A stretch of DNA of 64,000 bases. Origin: a virus. A program made the translations under genes and the position numbers. Shown one piece after another: positions 6,445 through 61,781 of the stretch. Each line of letters starts with the position of its first letter. The first letter of the stretch is position 1. The notes below the pieces were generated by a model, which searched no databases, had not been told where the DNA came from, and saw nothing but the letters and a program-made list of their open reading frames with translations. The DNA lies in the IMG/VR virus record IMGVR_UViG_3300027905_000001, positions 1-64,000 of that record; one strand, written 5' to 3'.

Positions 6445-6695
6445 TCAAATACTTTCTTGATAGCAGCATTAGGATCGCTGTAATCATCAACTAAATCCAT
6501 AGCTTTATCGGCAGTAATTTCCGGCAGCTCGCGTTTAAGTGATTCAGCAAGGATTTCCCCGACCTGCTGGAAGGATAGCTCTTTCAGATTCCATTTATCA
6601 ACATTGAGGTCAAATACTTTTTCAAGCTTAGCGATTCCCTTCATACCTAATCTGAGTGTTCTATCTTGGTCGAGTGTGTAAATTACTGGTAACAT
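6345..6695 (-). CDS. Tail assembly chaperone (G-like, short form)
   Basis: 116 aa acidic protein between major tail and tape measure; contains slippery heptamer near its 3' end. Confidence 0.65.
   Translation of the reverse strand: MLPVIYTLDQDRTLRLGMKGIAKLEKVFDLNVDKWNLKELSFQQVGEILAESLKRELPEITADKAMDLVDDYSDPNAAIKKVFECIAATFPKNEQPAVEKPVTPEPAPETPQTILQ
6417..6423 (-). other. Programmed -1 ribosomal frameshift site, slippery heptamer A_AAA_AAC
   Basis: AAAAAAC in the G zero frame (cca aaa aac); -1 slip reads aaa aaa cga into the downstream frame. Confidence 0.6.
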
Positions 6696-21232: not shown

Positions 21233-21397
21233 ATGGCAGAAACAACAACCGACGACCGCGAACGCATGACACTACGCATCCCCCAGGACATTTGGCGCAT
21301 GATCAAAATGGACCTGATTGACAAAAAAGAAAAGTCGGCCAATGAGCTTATCACAAACTTAATATATGAGCACTACAAAGTACCCCGGCCGCAATAG
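21233..21397 (+). CDS. Ribbon-helix-helix (CopG/Arc-like) DNA-binding protein, 54 aa
   Basis: Not in ORF track (under 60 aa); MAETTTDDRERMTLRIPQDIWRMIKMDLIDKK...; GAAGGA RBS; start overlaps upstream stop. Confidence 0.55.
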   Translation: MAETTTDDRERMTLRIPQDIWRMIKMDLIDKKEKSANELITNLIYEHYKVPRPQ

Positions 21398-21447
21398 CTG
21401 GGGGTTTTCTTTACCTAAAAATACTTAATATTTATTGTCTTAATGCC

Positions 21448-21476: not shown

Positions 21477-21648
21477 TAACACATGGAAAACAGCACTCCA
21501 GCCCAATCCAGTGCAACAAACGCTTCCCCCGGCCAATTGCGGTCCGGGTCCGCCAAGAAGCCGAGAGAGAAAAGTTGACCGTGTGTCAGGGAAGAAGATT
21601 AATCCCGACAGGCTACAAAGGGAGCCGGGGAAAAAGGAGTTTTAAATT

Positions 21649-21858: not shown

Positions 21859-21971
21859 GATTTGCAGATGGCACCGGCCAGCACCCGGTGTAATGCACTA
21901 GCAGGCGTCCAAAGTCGCCGCAAATGCATCCCGACAGCTCGCAAGGAACGGGGAAAAGGAGGTCAGGACAG

Positions 21972-22919: not shown

Positions 22920-23013
22920 TTGCAGAGGATTAGGAGCCTAAAAACTCCTAATAATGCGCTAGGCAAGCGGTTCCAAGCCCGCGCCAATCGCAATTTTGAA
23001 AGGTGGAGCAATC

Positions 23014-52985: not shown

Positions 52986-53345
52986 ATGGAAATGAGGAAA
53001 ATATTTATGATTATCGGTATGGGCAGTAGAATTAGAGTTCTTCGACTTGAACGAGGGTTAACACAGGACCAAATGGCATATAAACTGGACATGAATCGTG
53101 CGAATTTCTCACATTACGAAAGAGACACATCTTCCCCACCGTGCGAAGTTCTGGTCAAAATAGCTGATATTTTAAATACAACTACAGATTTCCTTCTTGG
53201 ACGCACAGATACTAATCCACCCGATGCTGCAACAATCAAACAACTACAAGGAATTAATGAATTACCGCAAGACAAGAGAAGATTTGTAATAAATATAATA
53301 AATTCGATTATTTCAGAAATAATCGAAGAGGCTAAGGAGGAATAG
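52986..53345 (+). CDS. CI-like XRE-family repressor (probable start at ATG 53007)
   Basis: N-terminal HTH (LERGLTQDQMAYKLDMNRANFSHYE); start of integrase gene follows immediately. Confidence 0.7.
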   Translation: MEMRKIFMIIGMGSRIRVLRLERGLTQDQMAYKLDMNRANFSHYERDTSSPPCEVLVKIADILNTTTDFLLGRTDTNPPDAATIKQLQGINELPQDKRRFVINIINSIISEIIEEAKEE

Positions 53346-53347
53346 GT

Positions 53348-54826
53348 ATGCATGGAATACTATACCTGCGCAAAAGCAGAGAAGATGAGCAATATGAAAA
53401 AAATACTGGCGAAGATGTTCTGCAAACCCATCGCGAACGTTTGGTTATGCTCTGTAAGTCGCGGGAAATTACCTTCGACGAACGCGCAGAGGTACGAAGC
53501 GGTGATACGATCGCAGGTCGGCCTAAATTTCAGAATATACTAGATACGGATCTCCCCTCTGGTCAATACTCTTGTATCATTGTTACTGAAATTTCTCGAC
53601 TTGGCAGAGGGGACATGGAGGATGCAGGAAGAATATACAAAACCATAATCCACAACGAGATTAAGATTGTCACGCCGAATAAAATATATGATCCGTTAAA
53701 CCCTTCCGATCTTCGCCAGCTAAGGTTCGAGCTATTCATGTCTCGGGAGGAATACGAAAGCATTAAGGAAAGACTATGGAATAATAGAAATTACCGGGCA
53801 ACACAAGGTTATGCCGGCAATTATATTGTCACGCTCGGTTTTCGCCAGTCCAGGGGGATAGTCGAGATAATCCCCGAAGAGGAAAAATTAGTGCTTGAAA
53901 TATTTACGATGCGCTCTGAAAATTACTCCTATCAAGAAATAGCGGATTACTTTAATTCCAGAAATTTAAAGACAAAACGCGGAACAAAGTATCATGAATC
54001 TACAATATATAAGATATTAAAAAATCCCAGGTATATAGGAGTGGCTAAGTGGCAAGGCAAGGAATATATAGCTAAGCACCCTGCGATAGTCTCATTGGAC
54101 CTATGGAACTCTGCGCAGGATATCAACGCTGAAAGACATCACAAGAGACGAGGGTCAAAAAACGATAACCCTTATCTAGTAGAGCTATACTGTCGAGAAT
54201 GCGGGCAAAGGATGTACGGGGAACGCTCTACCCCGCAAAGGGTAATAGATGGTGTTCGAAAGCTATATAAAAGCAGAGACATCTATATTTGTAGGGGCAG
54301 AAAAAGCATCCCTAAATGTTGGCACCACATAGGAGCCAGCGTTGTTCACTCGACCATCCTTGATGAGCTTGGGAAGATAATATCAGATCCGCAGATTTTT
54401 CTTGAGTTAGTCAACGAGAGAGAATCAAGACTTGGCGTCGATACTAATGGTTTATCAGATCAAGTGGATGAATTAAATAAGCAAGTCAAGGATAAAAACA
54501 TCCTTTTGGTAAAAATAGAGAACGATTATGAAAAAGGCGACCTATCCGCTTTGCTATATACTAAACACGTTGAAAAAATATCCAAAGAAATAGCATCTAT
54601 TGAAGGTAGGATAAAAAAAATTAAGGCCGATTTATTAAAATCAGCCATTAAGATTAGTCCTCCTATGGAATTACAATCAATTTTGAAAACATTCCTAAAT
54701 AACTGGAACGCCTATCCTAATAGTGACAAGAAGCTCATCATTAGATCATTTCTTCCCAGGGTTGAGGTGAACAAGCAGGGTGAATTCTTTATCGCTATTA
54801 CTTTGCCTGATTCTATCGAAATTTAG
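53348..54826 (+). CDS. Large serine recombinase (prophage integrase)
   Basis: 492 aa; N-terminal resolvase-type catalytic region (YLRKSRED), recombinase domain, Cys-containing zinc ribbon, coiled-coil C-terminus. Confidence 0.85.
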   Translation: MHGILYLRKSREDEQYEKNTGEDVLQTHRERLVMLCKSREITFDERAEVRSGDTIAGRPKFQNILDTDLPSGQYSCIIVTEISRLGRGDMEDAGRIYKTIIHNEIKIVTPNKIYDPLNPSDLRQLRFELFMSREEYESIKERLWNNRNYRATQGYAGNYIVTLGFRQSRGIVEIIPEEEKLVLEIFTMRSENYSYQEIADYFNSRNLKTKRGTKYHESTIYKILKNPRYIGVAKWQGKEYIAKHPAIVSLDLWNSAQDINAERHHKRRGSKNDNPYLVELYCRECGQRMYGERSTPQRVIDGVRKLYKSRDIYICRGRKSIPKCWHHIGASVVHSTILDELGKIISDPQIFLELVNERESRLGVDTNGLSDQVDELNKQVKDKNILLVKIENDYEKGDLSALLYTKHVEKISKEIASIEGRIKKIKADLLKSAIKISPPMELQSILKTFLNNWNAYPNSDKKLIIRSFLPRVEVNKQGEFFIAITLPDSIEI

Positions 54827-54884
54827 CAAACGGGAAACCTTCCGACAATTTCAAAATAGGGAAGGTTTCCCGTTTGCGGTTTTA
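54827..54884. terminator. Strong bidirectional rho-independent terminator after the integrase gene
   Basis: Perfect 17-bp stem CAAACGGGAAACCTTCC / GGAAGGTTTCCCGTTTG, 16-nt loop, then CGGTTTT. Confidence 0.75.
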
Positions 54885-55145: not shown

Positions 55146-55555
55146 GATAATATCAAGTATTTTTTCAGTCGGAATATTTTTTTCAATATCTATATCCTCA
55201 TCTCCTGCCTGAATTTATGTTTTACCAGTCTCTATATACTAGAACGTGTGTTCTTAATTTTCAAGGGGTAATTTGTCGCAAAAGAAATAAATCGTTTCTC
55301 TTCCCCTTTCTCTCGCTACCCGTAGGAACAAAGTCCTACAATCAGTCCTAGATATAATTCAGAATATTTATTTAAGTTATTGACAGTATACGCTATAACG
55401 TTTGTCGAAATCGCGTGAAATAAAGGAGGCCAAATGTGAATATTTTGTGATTATAAATTATACTTAAGTCTACATATTATAATACCTGCTACATTTTTGT
55501 GTTAGCAGGATTAATCCTATCCTCTGTGGAAGTATTTTCCTATGGTGGTGAGGCG

Positions 55556-55777
55556 ATGGATTTAGAAGATAAGTTAAAGGATAACAAAATACAATACATA
55601 CTAGACAAGCGTGATATGTCGCAAAAAGACCTTGCCGCAACGCTCGGGTGGTGGCCGAGTGACATAAGCGACATCGTTAACGGTAAGGTTAAGCGCCTTA
55701 CGCTCATTCGCGCTTCGATGATATCCGTTGCTCTCGGGTATTCGGTTGAGTATATTTGGCCTACTTTATTCAAGTAG
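55556..55777 (+). CDS. XRE-like HTH regulator (track start 55499)
   Basis: DKRDMSQKDLAATLGWWPSDISDIVNGKVKRLTLIRASMISVALG. Confidence 0.55.
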   Translation: MDLEDKLKDNKIQYILDKRDMSQKDLAATLGWWPSDISDIVNGKVKRLTLIRASMISVALGYSVEYIWPTLFK

Positions 55778-56299: not shown

Positions 56300-56527
56300 A
56301 TGGACATAACTAAAATCCAAAAAATCGTTCGCAAGGCTATCAAGGACTACGCCATTACCGCAAAGTACGATGAGGAAATTCTAGTATCATTTCTCAGCGT
56401 GGATATTTTCCGGGAGATCAACGAGGATTCCCCGGCACCTCTCTCGGATCCCAAGGCTCCCCCTCGCCGCAATACTAACCAGAATGCATTAGGTCTGGTA
56501 AATCACGAAGCAGGTGAAACGCCATGA
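56300..56527 (+). CDS. Hypothetical small protein (75 aa; track start 56261)
   Basis: GGAAGTGAGG RBS before ATG 56300; 3' end overlaps next gene (ATGA). Confidence 0.4.
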   Translation: MDITKIQKIVRKAIKDYAITAKYDEEILVSFLSVDIFREINEDSPAPLSDPKAPPRRNTNQNALGLVNHEAGETP

Positions 56528-57852
56528 GTGAAAAATCATCGTCCGTAAAGCCCGACCTGATCGGCTTGACATCCTCTACTCTGGTCAAACTTGGACGCTT
56601 TGCCCTACGTCATATCGGCAGTCCCAACAACTCCTATGCGAACAAGATAATGCTGAACTGGAAACGCAATGACATATGCACCGAAACCAAAGAGCGAGGC
56701 AAGGATTACACAGAGAAGAAATACCCTACGCTAGTGGAAAAGACAATGAAGGGTCATAATCGAGTACTTAGATACAAGATACCCACCGGTCTAAATCCGC
56801 AGAAAGTCATGAAATCCCTCTACGACATCGAGTTCGATCTCAAGTCAGAAGTCCTATTCAAGCGACTTGAGAACGATCCCAAAGCGCACTTCTCACTCAC
56901 TATCTTATCCGGCAAACTGTTAGACATTATCAACTACTCCAACGAGGCCAGTATTACTCCAGATGGCAAGGAGTTAAGCAAAGGTCTATGGATACCTCTA
57001 GGGTGGTCAAGAAGGGGCTTGGAACAACTTAATTTAGCCTCTAGCAACAGCCCTCATCTTATGATCGGAGGGGCTACAGGAGGCGGCAAGAGCATCCTTG
57101 GCAGGCTTATCCTTGCTACCCTCCATATCCGCTATAACCGTGATGAATGCCGACTATGGCTCTGTGACCTTAAACATGGCAACGGCACAGCAAGGCTAGG
57201 GAAAAACCCTCTCCTTGTAGATAGGACTATTTCTGATCCGGGCGAAGCAGAACAAATGATGGACGATCTCTCTGTGATTATTGGCGAGCGATATAATTTA
57301 TTTAAGGAGTATGAGTGCGACGATTTACAGGCGTTTAACGAGGAATATCCAAGATTGAGATTGCCGCGCATTGTGGTTTATGTGGATGAATTAACCAAAC
57401 TTGAGGGCAAGGAGTTCTCCAGGGCTCGTGAAAAGATGACTAAAGTCACGGGGGAATCCAGGGGTGCAGGAGTGCATGTTATTATCTCTTGTCACAGGCC
57501 CACAGCTAACCTTGTGTCCGGCACGATGAAGAACAATATCTCTGCCGTTGTCGCGTTTAATTGCAACGCTGTATCGGCTCGTGTGTTGCTTGGAGAAGAT
57601 CCGGAGGATTACAAGGCAGCCAGCATGATTGATCCAGATATCGAAGGTCGAGCATTGTTTAAATTTAAAGATGAGGTATTGCTGCAGGTCCCCTACATCG
57701 ACAACCATGCAATCAAGTCCCTTATGGCCAACTATCAAAAAGCGATAATTAAAGGTAAGGTCGAGCCAGTGATACAGGCTGTTATTTCCACTAGGGTGGT
57801 TGAGCACTCAGTCGGGCACTCACTCGGTCATACTATTGAGCACCCCCAGTGA
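56524..57852 (+). CDS. FtsK/SpoIIIE-family DNA translocase-like ATPase
   Basis: 442 aa; Walker A GGATGGGKS, Walker B-like VVYVDEL. Confidence 0.75.
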   Translation: MSEKSSSVKPDLIGLTSSTLVKLGRFALRHIGSPNNSYANKIMLNWKRNDICTETKERGKDYTEKKYPTLVEKTMKGHNRVLRYKIPTGLNPQKVMKSLYDIEFDLKSEVLFKRLENDPKAHFSLTILSGKLLDIINYSNEASITPDGKELSKGLWIPLGWSRRGLEQLNLASSNSPHLMIGGATGGGKSILGRLILATLHIRYNRDECRLWLCDLKHGNGTARLGKNPLLVDRTISDPGEAEQMMDDLSVIIGERYNLFKEYECDDLQAFNEEYPRLRLPRIVVYVDELTKLEGKEFSRAREKMTKVTGESRGAGVHVIISCHRPTANLVSGTMKNNISAVVAFNCNAVSARVLLGEDPEDYKAASMIDPDIEGRALFKFKDEVLLQVPYIDNHAIKSLMANYQKAIIKGKVEPVIQAVISTRVVEHSVGHSLGHTIEHPQ

Positions 57853-57966
57853 TTGTACTCAACGATTCAATGCGCTTTATAGGCTCCTTTGGTCATGCCG
57901 TGCGGTCCGTAAAGTGCTTTATTATCCTTACTTTTTTATTTTGTATTTATTTTATATTTTTGCGAG

Positions 57967-58605
57967 GTGAAAATTGTGAACTTAGTGGCATATGGCAAGC
58001 AACGAGACGAACGAATTATGGGGCTAGTAGGGCTTGGGACAGCCTTTACGCGAAGCCAAATAGAGCGAGTTATATTTAAGGGAAGTAAGCGTAAGGCTCA
58101 GACTAGACTGCAGGTGCTATCCGATTCAGGGCGACTAAAAAAGATTATCCGCAGTCCCCACGAACCAGCCATCTATTGCCTCAAAAAACCCCGAAATATC
58201 GATCATTATTTACTTATCAATGAAATCTATTGTGCCGTAATGTCTCAGAAAAAGTCTTGGCATATCGTCAAGTGGCAATGGTCATATCCAATTATGGAAG
58301 GTAAGATTTGGGCAGACGCAATGGTTGATATTTACGACCAACTCAATAAGCGTAGGCATGTTATATTTGTTGAGGTTGAGCGTTACGCAGACCGTAAGTT
58401 CGAGAAGGATAAAAAGTATTCAGCCATTACCAGCGCGAACTGGACGAAAGAAGAGTGGGCGATTAAGGAGCCTACAAGGATATTGTTCCCGGCAATCCTA
58501 GTTGTCACCGAATGCAAATTAGAGGTCAAAAGCGAGTTGGATTTCTTTGTTGCCACGATGGACCAAGTCAAAAAAGACATTTACTCTATTATCTTAAGGA
58601 GGTAA
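57967..58605 (+). CDS. Replication-relaxation-family-like protein (winged-helix N-terminus), tentative
   Basis: 212 aa; N-terminal LVGLGTAFTRSQIERVIF...RLQVLSDSGRLKKI; central VIFVEVERY. Confidence 0.45.
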   Translation: MKIVNLVAYGKQRDERIMGLVGLGTAFTRSQIERVIFKGSKRKAQTRLQVLSDSGRLKKIIRSPHEPAIYCLKKPRNIDHYLLINEIYCAVMSQKKSWHIVKWQWSYPIMEGKIWADAMVDIYDQLNKRRHVIFVEVERYADRKFEKDKKYSAITSANWTKEEWAIKEPTRILFPAILVVTECKLEVKSELDFFVATMDQVKKDIYSIILRR

Positions 58606-58848: not shown

Positions 58849-58880
58849 TTTAGCCCCTTCGTAAACCGAGGGGCTATTTT
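58849..58880 (+). terminator. Rho-independent terminator
   Basis: TAGCCCCT ... AGGGGCTA stem followed by TTTTA. Confidence 0.55.
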
Positions 58881-59003
58881 AATGCCCTGACATAACGAAA
58901 CCCCAGCATTTGCCGGGGGTTAGTTTTTATTCTCTATTATTTATGGCTATTCGGATTATATGGTGGAAAATGAGTTTGGAATTTCCAGTTTTATAATAAA
59001 TAA

Positions 59004-59064
59004 TTACTACTATTATAGCGTTATCGCTTGACAAATTATAGCGATAACGCTATAATAGTAGTAA
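59004..59064 (+). promoter_or_regulatory. Consensus sigma-A promoter (TTGACA-17-TATAAT) embedded in a perfect 24-bp inverted repeat (operator-like)
   Basis: Arm 1 59004-59027 TTACTACTATTATAGCGTTATCGC; arm 2 59041-59064 exact reverse complement; -35 59028-59033; -10 59051-59056. Confidence 0.7.
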
Positions 59065-59124
59065 CAGCTAAAGATTACATGAACCCGACAGCCCATAAGG
59101 GGCGGGGCGAGAGGAGAATATAAA

Positions 59125-59985
59125 ATGGCAAATGAAGTCGTCAAGGAATACTACAAATGGGATGAAACAGGTGAAGCTTTTGGCATAAGTATAAGCTACG
59201 ATGCCGGAGATGACTGTGGTCCAGTTGCTGGGCTTAAACTAAGTGGTGGACAACCAAAAGAAGTCAACGGTCAAAATGTCGTTTGGTTCGAAAAAACAAC
59301 CAAAGGTCAGCCCGTCGCCATAAAGTATAACAGCCGTCCCGATTTAGCAGCCCTTGTGAACGAGTATAAAAAGTTTCAGGCTGAGCAACAAACAAGGCAT
59401 AATACCCGGGCTGCTGCACATCAAGCCGAGCGGGAAGCCATAGACAACCCTCTACTTGAGGACATGGAAGCAGAAGCTGTTGAATTGCGGAAAAAGATTC
59501 CGACCGGGCATATCGAGGTTGATGTCGAGGATAATGGCAATCTTGACGGCTATCCTAATTTAAAATACTCAGTAAACGGCGTTGAATTGCCTTGGGATAA
59601 GGTCAACCATATTGGCACTGCGAGTGCGATTCGCCCAGGCGCATTAGGTTCTTTTGCTCAAATTTATGTCGTATCTATCGCCAAGGATCAAATCGAACAA
59701 ATCAAAAAAGAGCAGGAAGAGAAATCGGCAATCAACCAAGCTAAAAAAGAGGCTTACCAAAGAGAATTAACTGGGACTATAATCCCTCCGGCGGCCTTAG
59801 AGGCTTACAACTATTACCACGGTGACGCAGAACTAGCATGGGAAAAAGAAGATGAATCCTCTTGGGCTCTTATTGAACGATGGACCACTTATATCGAGGC
59901 ACAACATGGGATTGCCCCTCGTAAATTACAGCACATGGTTTCGGAATCCGCGCGCGAAGAGAATTATGGGATCAATGAGGGTTAG
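59125..59985 (+). CDS. Hypothetical protein (286 aa) under the palindromic promoter
   Basis: GAGAGGAG RBS; no motif recognised. Confidence 0.55.
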   Translation: MANEVVKEYYKWDETGEAFGISISYDAGDDCGPVAGLKLSGGQPKEVNGQNVVWFEKTTKGQPVAIKYNSRPDLAALVNEYKKFQAEQQTRHNTRAAAHQAEREAIDNPLLEDMEAEAVELRKKIPTGHIEVDVEDNGNLDGYPNLKYSVNGVELPWDKVNHIGTASAIRPGALGSFAQIYVVSIAKDQIEQIKKEQEEKSAINQAKKEAYQRELTGTIIPPAALEAYNYYHGDAELAWEKEDESSWALIERWTTYIEAQHGIAPRKLQHMVSESAREENYGINEG

Positions 59986-60007
59986 TGGAGAGAGTGTTTG
60001 AAAAAAG

Positions 60008-60035
60008 AAAGAGCCGTAATCAATCGGCTCTTTCT
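60008..60035 (+). terminator. Hairpin terminator-like element
   Basis: AGAGCCG ... CGGCTCT stem followed by T-rich tract. Confidence 0.4.
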
Positions 60036-60077: not shown

Positions 60078-60106
60078 TTGATGGGATTTATTACCCATAA
60101 TATAAT
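60078..60106 (+). promoter_or_regulatory. Sigma-A-type promoter (TTGATG-17-TATAAT) with inverted repeat ATGGG/CCCAT in the spacer
   Basis: -35 60078-60083, -10 60101-60106. Confidence 0.5.
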
Positions 60107-60145
60107 CCAAATAGCAGTATATGTCAAGACTAAGGAGGGCATTTC

Positions 60146-60853
60146 GTGAAAAAGAAACATCGGTCTATTTCGCAGATACTTGATAGATCGAAATCTGCCG
60201 AATCAAGAAGAGCTATCACTATAAATTGGTCAAAGTCATGGGAAAATGAGACCATGGAACTCATACGTAACCTTGAACAGGCTGTAAGGGCCATGGATTA
60301 CGATCAGCTATGCATTAATACCAGGCAGCTTAAGGCGGTTACTCAAAAACGTTTTGGAGCCCTGCCAAATATATTTATGCACCTCACTAAGGCTGGTGCC
60401 GCAGAGAAAAACCCGGAAAAAGAACCCGAACCATTAGCCAATGCAGCTGTACAAGATATACACAAAAAGCAGGATGTCCCAAAAGAACCAGATGAGCCGA
60501 GCCATGCGGAGGAGCAGCATGTGCCCGGAATCTGCATAGACTGTGGTGTCAGTTTTAATGCTAAAACCAGCCGCCAAAAGCGGTGCCCCGAGTGCCAAGT
60601 TGAACACAACAAGGCGTTACGGTTAGCCGCGGCCAAGGCAACTCAAGATGTCAAAAGAGATAGGCCTCTTTTGGATATCATGGAGGGATACATTACGGTA
60701 AAAGAATGGGCGAGCAAGCACGGTAAGAGTCCGTCCAGCGCTCAGAATATATTGTCCAATTCCCCTACTCTTGTACCAGCTGCCAGAAAGGTGCGCAATC
60801 CTCGCGGCGGCGTGGATATCTGGGTCGTACCAAAAGAGACAATATGGCCTTAA
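60146..60853 (+). CDS. Hypothetical protein with C-terminal zinc ribbon (GTG start)
   Basis: 235 aa; CIDCG...CPECQ; TAAGGAGGG RBS. Confidence 0.5.
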   Translation: MKKKHRSISQILDRSKSAESRRAITINWSKSWENETMELIRNLEQAVRAMDYDQLCINTRQLKAVTQKRFGALPNIFMHLTKAGAAEKNPEKEPEPLANAAVQDIHKKQDVPKEPDEPSHAEEQHVPGICIDCGVSFNAKTSRQKRCPECQVEHNKALRLAAAKATQDVKRDRPLLDIMEGYITVKEWASKHGKSPSSAQNILSNSPTLVPAARKVRNPRGGVDIWVVPKETIWP

Positions 60854-60865
60854 TAAAATAAAGGA

Positions 60866-61054
60866 ATGATAGCGATGGAACTTAAAGACGTACTAACAGG
60901 TCCCGAAGCTGCGCAACTTTGGAGCATTGGAGAGTCAACAGTCCGCAATGCAGCTGCGGCGGGTAAATTCAACGAAGACGAAGCTCGAAGGGCAGGGAAA
61001 AACTGGCTAATCACCAGAGAAGGCATGAAAAGAGTATTTGGTGATCCTAACTAA
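60866..61054 (+). CDS. Small HTH DNA-binding protein (62 aa)
   Basis: LTGPEAAQLWSIGESTVRNAAAAGKF...WLITREGMKRVFG. Confidence 0.5.
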   Translation: MIAMELKDVLTGPEAAQLWSIGESTVRNAAAAGKFNEDEARRAGKNWLITREGMKRVFGDPN

Positions 61055-61161: not shown

Positions 61162-61416
61162 TCACGCCTTATTCCTCCCATACTTCTTTTCGTACATTGG
61201 CTTAAGAATTGCATAAAAGTCGCAATCCTCCAATTTATTCCCATACTTATCCCTGAATTCAGCTTGCAGTTTTTGTCTAGGAATGTGGCAACTCCCTTTG
61301 TAAGGGCATTCGCAAGGCCCCTTGACCATCGTGTCGCCATAGCATTCTTTTTCTTTACAATCGTGATGTCCTTGGCAGATAGGATATTCCATGTAATGGC
61401 CCGAGCATTCTTTCAT
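61162..61416 (-). CDS. Small Cys/His-rich protein (84 aa)
   Basis: Multiple C and H pairs (CQGHHDCKEKEC...CECPYKGSCH). Confidence 0.4.
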   Translation of the reverse strand: MKECSGHYMEYPICQGHHDCKEKECYGDTMVKGPCECPYKGSCHIPRQKLQAEFRDKYGNKLEDCDFYAILKPMYEKKYGRNKA

Positions 61417-61781
61417 TATTTCATCTCTCTCCTAAAAATCTCATTAATCCTACCGACCATCTCCACCGGCAACGCAACCCGACACATCTCATAATTACTA
61501 TAATCCGAAGGAGATATACCAAGTGACTTAGCCATCTTTGAGATAGTTATCTGTAACTCTTTTCTCTTAGCCCTAATCGATATCATTTGTACTTCATTCC
61601 TACTATTTGCCTTGACCACTTCTCTTATTTCTTCTTCTCGGTATTCCCTGATCGATTCCTTGGTCTGCTTTGTTAAGCAACTGAGGTTACGGCAATCGTA
61701 TGTCCCGCCATGAGTTCCGTTCGGACCATCCCATAAGGCGAAAACGTATTTAGTCGGGTCGTTGCAGGTTTGACAGTTCAT
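61416..61781 (-). CDS. Zinc-ribbon plus C-terminal HTH protein (121 aa)
   Basis: N-terminal CQTCN...C; C-terminal LQITISKMAKSLGISPSDYSNYEMCRVALPVEMVGRINEIF. Confidence 0.45.
   Translation of the reverse strand: MNCQTCNDPTKYVFALWDGPNGTHGGTYDCRNLSCLTKQTKESIREYREEEIREVVKANSRNEVQMISIRAKRKELQITISKMAKSLGISPSDYSNYEMCRVALPVEMVGRINEIFRREMK

Follow-up and report, generated by a model that had tools for sequence, protein, structure and literature searches.

Promoters held by a product of their own operon are familiar from phage lambda, where Cro and CI occupy several near-palindromic sites laid over the -35 and -10 elements of an early promoter at OR and OL. Repression through repeated sites is also known for P2 Cox and 186 Apl, small Xis-like DNA binders whose targets are att and arrays of direct repeats lying between the divergent lysis-lysogeny promoters. 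The closest parallel to the locus described here is with the Aca-regulated anti-CRISPR operons, in which inverted repeats lie over the promoter, the regulator gene is part of the operon, the acr genes vary and a hairpin is often present in the 5' UTR (PMC13551039, PMC12658196). The hairpin associated with Aca1 has a conserved lower stem of 3 bp and an upper stem that covaries, with a few unpaired bases between them (PMC13551039).

The locus considered here is a perfect inverted repeat at positions 59004-59064 of a 64-kb stretch of viral DNA, which was analysed as a whole and is referred to below as the window. Set beside the Aca1, Aca2, Aca7, Aca10, Aca12 and Aca14 systems (PMC13551039, PMC12658196, PMC6765145), it shows the same strong promoter overlapped by inverted repeats (here two proposed operators, O1 and O2), with small, variable cargo genes placed first and a small regulator gene that belongs to the cargo operon and usually stands at its end. 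It is likewise found in phages and mobile elements, and a 5'-UTR hairpin, similar in general shape to that associated with Aca1, lies just upstream of the first start codon. It differs from the Aca systems as follows. The candidate regulator is an Xis/BldC-like winged helix of the HTH_59 family, which Pfam and fold comparisons set apart from XRE-type HTH, DUF1870 and RHH proteins; known anti-CRISPRs are absent from the cargo, with an AcrVA2-like gene present only as a neighbour in two related loci (L002 and L071); and the hairpin, which with Aca1 and Aca2 is an RNA motif bound by the regulator, is here also present in operons that lack HTH_59. We consider that the module is probably an Aca-like autorepressed operator and promoter, and hence of a familiar design, and that HTH_59 is most likely a repressor family not previously linked to that design.

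The remaining systems offer more partial parallels. As at OR and OL, near-palindromic sites lie over the -35 and -10 elements and autoregulation by an operon product is proposed; the fold is a different one, however, the two sites are 23 bp apart with mirrored centres, and there is neither a divergent promoter nor any sign of a lysis-lysogeny switch. HTH_59 resembles Cox and Apl in being a small Xis-like protein with proposed repeated sites, but its two dyads sit on a single accessory-operon promoter and no link with att was found. With BldC and Xis (structures 6ama, 6amk, 4j2n and 1y6u) it shares a small winged helix without an effector domain. These proteins bind head-to-tail on direct repeats, whereas most of the proposed HTH_59 sites are dyads in inverted pairs.

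The palindromic promoter and its surroundings

Inverted-repeat analysis gives a left arm at 59004-59028 (TTACTACTATTATAGCGTTATCGCT) and a right arm at 59040-59064 (AGCGATAACGCTATAATAGTAGTAA), each of 25 nt, 100% complementary and separated by 11 nt. The original prediction had recognised the perfection of the repeat, but had given it arms of 24 nt and a spacer of 13 nt. Among the perfect short-range inverted repeats of the window it is the longest. Folded as single-stranded DNA it reaches -25.2 kcal/mol, against -6.2 +/- 2.0 kcal/mol for shuffled sequences (z = -9.3; none of the 200 shuffles matched it), and a chance origin is excluded.

The repeat holds a sigma-70 promoter. The -35 hexamer TTGACA (59028-59033, plus strand) and the -10 hexamer TATAAT (59051-59056, plus strand) match the consensus at 12 of 12 positions with a spacer of 17 nt, which falls within the 16-18 nt expected of a sigma-70 promoter; a sigma-70 scan of 54-64 kb returned 18 promoter-like sites, and no other has a full match. 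A consensus promoter with its TATAAT inside the right arm is what had been predicted. The -35 lies in the spacer between the arms, as had also been stated, except for its first T, which is the last base of the left arm. Among the related loci described below the -10 is kept, and the -35 reads TTGACA, TTGACC or TTTACA. From promoter geometry, transcription is predicted to start at 59062-59065 (plus strand), 6-9 nt past the -10 and at the point to which the right arm extends, so that the palindrome itself would be absent from the mRNA. A divergent minus-strand promoter making use of the mirrored TATAAT of the left arm was considered and rejected, as it has no usable -35 and no open reading frame downstream.

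Within the arms are the two 12-bp dyads that we propose as operators. O1 (59017-59028; AGCG-TTAT-CGCT, AGCGTTATCGCT) ends on the first base of the -35, and O2 (59040-59051; AGCG-ATAA-CGCT, AGCGATAACGCT) fills the promoter spacer and ends on the first base of the -10. The pattern AGCG-N4-CGCT occurs twice in the window against an expectation of 0.52, both times in the palindrome arms. Since a plain hairpin stem has no need of arms that are each self-complementary, this points to paired operators recognised by a symmetric DNA-binding protein. The search for other copies of the arm that accompanied the original prediction as a suggestion yielded no convincing second copy in the window.

Downstream of the promoter, on the plus strand, are a first cargo gene of 286 aa (59125-59985), a second gene of 235 aa (60146-60853) and the gene for the candidate repressor, a 62-aa HTH_59 winged-helix protein (60866-61054). 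The latter is the final gene on this strand before a strand switch; an XRE-type HTH gene lies beyond it at 61416-61781. In Candidatus Desulfosporosinus infrequens the 286-aa product has a counterpart of 100% identity, annotated as a hypothetical protein; nucleotide searches against phages (megablast) and plasmids (blastn) returned no matches. Directly 3' of the 286-aa gene is a hairpin with an 11-bp stem (60006-60035) that qualifies as a terminator only when read on the minus strand; as it has no immediate plus-strand T run, read-through to the 235-aa and HTH_59 genes is uncertain. A separate promoter-like site, which is conserved in L002, lies before the 235-aa gene at 60078-60106, and taken together with the hairpin this means that HTH_59 may not be expressed from the palindromic promoter only. 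We also observed a 33-nt inverted repeat, 76% complementary (58939-58971 and 60090-60122), that brackets the palindrome and the 286-aa gene. Its right copy forms the -10 region of the site at 60078-60106, and homologues of the repeat are found in L001 (about 6596-6628, in opposite orientation) and L002 (about 60-90).

Upstream, on the same strand, lie an HTH gene (52986-53345) with a serine recombinase gene (53348-54826), an XRE-type HTH gene (55499-55777), and genes for an FtsK/SpoIIIE ATPase (56524-57852) and a Replic_Relax protein (57967-58605), the last of which ends about 400 bp before the palindrome. Two terminator-like hairpins (58851-58876 and 58901-58918, plus strand) separate the FtsK and Replic_Relax genes from the promoter. 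PADLOC found only generic FtsK-type ATPase matches in the neighbourhood. The left part of the window is prophage-like, with two Rha proteins and DNA methylases, which together with the gene context indicates that the locus belongs to the accessory part of a mobile element. In three loci (the window, 56524-58605; L073, 2613-4395; L079, 1-278) genes for an FtsK/SpoIIIE ATPase and a Replic_Relax-like protein adjoin a 286-aa family gene or an HTH_59 operon, and this suggests a small integrative mobilisable or conjugative module. A separate perfect inverted repeat of 18 nt (GCAAACGGGAAACCTTCC; 54826-54843 and 54860-54877, spacer 16 nt) begins where the serine recombinase gene ends, at its stop codon, and could be a terminator or a recombination site.

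HTH_59 and its proposed sites in related operons

The product of 60866-61054 matches two Pfam families only, HTH_59 (PF20038; 71.4 bits against a cut-off of 27, E = 6.1e-20) and HTH_17. Its AF2 model (pLDDT 88.6) runs strand, helix, helix, two-strand wing, helix, and so describes a winged helix. The closest PDB folds identified with Foldseek are 4j2n, 6ama, 1y6u and 6amk (TM 0.63-0.71, identity 23-28%), and the structural neighbours comprise mycobacteriophage Pukovnik Xis, Tn916 Xis and BldC, Xis and BldC being known DNA binders. The Foldseek E-values are weak (about 0.06) because the protein is so small; the best sequence-profile match in the PDB is 4j2n (E = 0.068). PHROGs and one GenBank record label relatives of HTH_59 as excisionases.

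Related loci were found through the 286-aa protein, through the DNA pattern, and through the HTH_59 protein alone. In L069, where the 286-aa homologue is 62% identical, the same sites stand in perfect arms and the homologue is followed directly by an HTH_59 gene; the contig, 1.4 kb in length, carries sites, cargo and HTH_59 only. L002 (67% identity) has perfect arms of 14 nt (ATAGCGCATACGCT/AGCGTATGCGCTAT) in which both centres have changed compensatorily, and its HTH_59 gene lies further down the operon. L001 (80% identity) shows compensatory changes in the flanks and has kept O1, with O2 decayed and carrying a 1-nt deletion; no HTH_59 gene is present within 14.8 kb. The palindrome is absent from the more distant homologues L003, L070, L071 and L073, and in L070 and L073 the homologue is followed by a different small HTH gene (GerE-type and an unclassified HTH, respectively). 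Scanning viral contigs with the DNA pattern returned L011, in which the same sites, promoter and 5' UTR precede an unrelated 69-aa gene and then an HTH_59 gene. A further match to the operator pattern, L012, was set aside as analogous or due to chance: it is from a GC-rich phage, its centres are not mirrored and it shares no context. A metagenome scan with CGCTTGAC-N7-AGCG-N4-CGCTAT gave 44 loci, none recognised as a further copy of the module; most are chance-like matches in GC-rich DNA and a few are promoter-like (L030, L034, L049, L053 and L061). Viral scans with the 286-aa and HTH_59 profiles gave few loci, and a genome-contig scan with the 286-aa family gave one distant locus only.

For the search with the HTH_59 profile, loci were fetched without regard to their DNA. 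In L076 (HTH_59 75% identical) TATAGCGTTATCGCT and AGCGATAACGCTATAAT are separated by 11 nt that include TTTACA, and the cargo is a 79-aa gene. In L078 (53%), which has a conjugative context and four unknown cargo genes, AGCGTATACGCT occurs twice round TTGAC, and the HTH_59 protein has the same N-terminal extension and wing as that of L002. In L075 (77%) degenerate sites, AGCGTTACAGCT and AGCGGAAACGCT, lie directly upstream of the HTH_59 gene. All three loci thus carry AGCG-N4-CGCT dyads in pairs on either side of a -35. The group L079/80/81 has the recognition helix EDKIKRYAREGKF instead of ESTVRNAAAAGKF and two copies of TTGCACGTTATCGT (CACG-TTAT-CGTG/T); these are direct repeats with a period of 21 bp that flank TTGACA and end at TATAAT. 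L077 has an HTH_59 pseudogene remnant and no sites. Two cultured records were also found. The C. botulinum plasmid pCBH has perfect 17-nt arms (ATCACGATAACGTGAAA/TTTCACGTTATCGTGAT) with CACG-N4-CGTG sites, one upstream of TTTACA and the other over the spacer and -10, in an operon that ends with a protein bearing a C-terminal HTH_59 domain. In Geobacillus virus E2 an HTH_59 'excisionase' gene is preceded by a shorter inverted repeat that surrounds the -10. HTH_59 is all that L011, L076, L078 and L079 have in common with the window.

The order site, -35, site, -10 is present in seven further operons of phages, plasmids and conjugative elements that carry an HTH_59 gene or a relative of it, four of the seven having been chosen by protein similarity alone; an eighth related operon has a weaker version. 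The HTH_59 gene is last on its strand in the window, L011, L069, L076, L078 and L079, first in L075, and followed by further genes in L002; counted over the seven related operons, it is last in six and first in one. Cargo varies between loci, whereas promoter, paired sites and HTH_59 gene persist, and the sites are decayed (L001) or absent (L077) where the HTH_59 gene is missing or broken. Counted from their inner ends, the arms are perfect over 25 nt in the window, 20 in L069, 15 in L011, L076 and L078, and 14 in L002; they are imperfect in L075 and L001, and L079 has none. The spacers between arms measure 9, 11 or 15 nt. O1 has the same sequence and place in L011, L069 and L076, and variants of it are found in L002, L078 and L075. 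In six loci O1 and O2 have asymmetric centres that mirror each other (TTAT/ATAA, CATA/TATG or TATA/TATA); conservation extends to the outer flanks, TAT/ATA, but not to the inner ones.

Variants of the sites can be set beside variants of the protein. TTAT/ATAA centres are found with the wing ARRAGKNW (window, L011, L069 and L076), YATA centres with the wing IIRLKRDW (L002 and L078), and outer CACG/CGTG with the recognition helix EDKIKR (L079). The helix-to-site mapping is not one-to-one, since pCBH, with DSTLRK, uses CACG/CGTG as well. The link between HTH_59 and the sites is one of co-occurrence over about nine loci, which make up only three or four independent operator classes. Three nearby HTH proteins had been named in the original prediction as candidates for binding; co-occurrence with the layout in other loci singles out that encoded at 60866-61054, and is not seen for those at 55556-55777 and 61416-61781.

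Proposed autorepression and competing readings

A near-consensus promoter, paired sites and an HTH_59 gene as invariant parts, combined with variable cargo, are the signature of an autoregulator and its operators. In our assessment the palindrome is likely to be the operator region of a negatively autoregulated operon, with HTH_59 as the proposed repressor. We infer binding, its stoichiometry and repression along the following lines. The consensus sigma-70 promoter (59028-59056) would drive the 286-aa gene, probably the 235-aa gene, and HTH_59 itself; HTH_59 would bind the two dyads, O1 at the -35 and O2 in the spacer and touching the -10, and RNA polymerase would be excluded when these are occupied. 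In an element entering a cell without HTH_59, the promoter would fire at full strength, and the build-up of HTH_59 would then shut it down. The comparative evidence thus favours a repressor on the promoter of the 286-aa gene, as originally predicted, but with two 12-bp dyads in place of a single dimer on a 61-bp site.

As near-palindromes with mirrored centres, O1 and O2 combine into a single long inverted repeat. In the window and L069 the perfect symmetry goes past the 14-15-nt arms of the relatives, mirroring the -10, discriminator and start region onto the left flank. The extra 10-11 bp in the window are, judging from the relatives, a lineage-specific extension (perfect arms of 25 nt here and 20 nt in L069) and not the conserved functional core, and the proposed model does not account for the added symmetry. 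Nor does a model of two dimers account for the mirrored centres, or for conserved outer flanks with variable inner ones. Template switching can drive concerted evolution of quasi-palindromes, and the mirrored centres and outer-flank conservation hint either at such concerted evolution or at a complex with its two-fold axis in the spacer.

The same sites could serve another protein, or HTH_59 in another capacity. If O1 and O2 were the operators of one of the XRE-type regulators (55499-55777, 61416-61781 or 52986-53345) or of a host factor, HTH_59 would merely be a co-transcribed excisionase or accessory protein. There are indeed three further HTH genes within 6 kb, PHROGs and a GenBank record give HTH_59 relatives the label of excisionase, and the window has a serine recombinase at 53348-54826. 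No nearby XRE gene recurs in the related loci, however, and the L069 contig shows that sites and cargo can be accompanied by HTH_59 only; furthermore, the recombinases beside the module differ in type or are absent. We therefore find a different regulator unlikely. HTH_59 might instead occupy the sites as MerR, BldC or Xis would, with an activating or architectural role, and its fold is closest to Xis and the MerR-like BldC. MerR-type proteins bind within promoter spacers, with activation depending on overlong spacers of 19-20 nt. Both hexamers are consensus here, at the optimal spacing of 17 nt, so there would be no need for activation, and the sites overlap both regions contacted by RNA polymerase, all of which makes such a role quite improbable.

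Alternatively, the palindrome could act as a DNA structure: a cruciform that switches the promoter in response to supercoiling or, in transferred single-stranded DNA, a hairpin that serves as an origin (oriT, dso or sso) or as a single-strand promoter. The hairpin is very stable (-25.2 kcal/mol, z = -9.3), the arms are perfect and change compensatorily between loci, an exact -10 and start region would be restored in the stem, and a Replic_Relax gene ends about 400 bp upstream, with another 2.6 kb upstream in L079. Yet the -35 falls within the 11-nt loop, so that the hairpin fails to rebuild the full promoter and does not correspond to a single-strand promoter of the Frpo type. A plain stem would leave the internal self-complementarity of each arm without a function, the direct repeats of L079, with their 21-bp period, yield no long stem, and the arms range from 14 to 25 nt, with spacers of 9, 11 or 15 nt. 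The fetched flanks of L011, L076, L078, L002 and L075 contain no Replic_Relax or Rep gene, a Replic_Relax gene being near only in the window and L079, and the conserved TTGACA and TATAAT with their 17-nt spacer favour a duplex promoter. The cruciform or origin-like element that the original prediction had entertained beside a repressor site is accordingly not supported, and we regard a structural role as very unlikely. The loop CTTGACA resembles the pC194-family nick site, CTTGATA, and TAGCGT in the arms resembles the CS-6 element of ssoA; both likenesses were dismissed as coincidence, the hexamer being the conserved -35 and the module not travelling with a Rep gene. An att or res site for the serine recombinase, an intrinsic terminator and the inverted ends of a transposon are all extremely unlikely identities for the palindrome. 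Partial dyad symmetry and a length of about 50 bp are typical of serine-integrase att sites, and a serine recombinase gene lies 4.2 kb upstream, but the related loci are without serine recombinases (L076 has tyrosine recombinases, the others none in their flanks). A terminator is contradicted by the AT-rich stem, the 11-nt loop and the lack of a T run (the sequence continues with CAGCTAAAG); the palindrome was not among the hits of the terminator scan, and real terminators lie at 58851-58918. Arms only 11 bp apart cannot be the ends of an element.

RNA elements, cargo genes and wider meaning

Between the autorepressed promoter that we propose and the first cargo gene, the 5' UTR carries a conserved hairpin (59084-59106, plus strand), made up of CCC, a GACA bulge, GCCC, an AUAAG loop, GGGC and GGG, which ends 6 nt before the Shine-Dalgarno sequence GGAG (59113-59116). 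The hairpin recurs in L001, L002, L011, L069 and L078 and is missing from L075, L076 and L079. It is also found behind unrelated operator-flanked promoters in L015, L018, L022, L085 and, twice, L016 (11850 and 12302), and the window has further copies at 21604-21630 and 21930-21952. Of the cells in an alignment of 14 copies 98% are paired, both partners have changed in three of the four upper-stem pairs, and the covariation score was reached by none of 500 shuffles; the copies have in common a covarying stem of 4 bp and a loop of 5-8 nt. IMG/VR contains few examples of it, about ten distinct copies in all. An Rfam search of 54-64 kb (E <= 1) gave no family for the hairpin and chance-level matches only, among them mir-137 with 21.9 bits over the palindrome, and a literature search for the hairpin sequence returned nothing relevant. 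Its presence in operons without an HTH_59 gene means that it is not a private RNA site of this repressor.

Operons that share the hairpin have operator designs of their own round a consensus promoter. In L022 (1905-1960) two copies of ATCCCG-N4-CGGGAT flank the -35, L018 (1050-1100) has a triple direct repeat of AGTCTGAT, and the corresponding regions of L015 (8045-8100) and L085 (150-200) read ACAGGCATTGCCTGT and GTGCAATAATTGCAC, respectively.

Two Type-P5 twister ribozymes were identified on the plus strand at 21863-21919 and 22921-22982, with 39.7 and 44.1 bits against the Rfam gathering score of 37.6. Both belong to an operon on the plus strand whose opening gene (about 21234-21398) is RHH-like. 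The first ribozyme ends 10 nt before the hairpin copy at 21930 and a ribosome-binding site, and the arrangement at 21863-21952 may be likened to a ribozyme-plus-hairpin insulator. The region upstream of a 281-aa homologue in L003 likewise looks twister-like. The twisters and the hairpin, the latter without an Rfam match, suggest further layers of control at the RNA level in these operons.

With respect to the cargo, the 286-aa protein has no match in Pfam, PHROG or PADLOC and no meaningful PDB fold match, the 235-aa protein has no informative match in Pfam, PHROG, PADLOC or PDB-fold comparison, and Pfam searches with the cargo of the other HTH_59 operons gave nothing informative; a recognisable anti-defence domain was found by none of these approaches. 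AcrVA2-like genes (PF26125) are present a few genes downstream of 286-aa family members in L002 (3917-4933) and L071 (1920-2909), and this hint is the only direct pointer to an anti-defence neighbourhood.

The design itself, a strong promoter held by the operon's own repressor, is textbook, and its value is in what it points to; we find the RNA features and the unannotated cargo more interesting than the palindrome. More speculatively, HTH_59 may be an unnamed Aca-like family that marks accessory operons with a burst of expression followed by shut-off in phages, plasmids and conjugative elements of Firmicutes, in which case the cargo would consist of new anti-defence proteins and the UTR hairpin would be a new RNA control element that is independent of the operon's own repressor. 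If this tentative picture is true, such proteins would be encoded by the 286-aa family and by the rest of the unannotated cargo; the CCC-GACA-stem-loop-GGG hairpin is common to operons with unrelated repressors. HTH_59 and its paired dyads could guide the search for unannotated early and anti-defence genes in the mobile elements of Gram-positive anaerobes, much as Aca genes have been used to find anti-CRISPRs.
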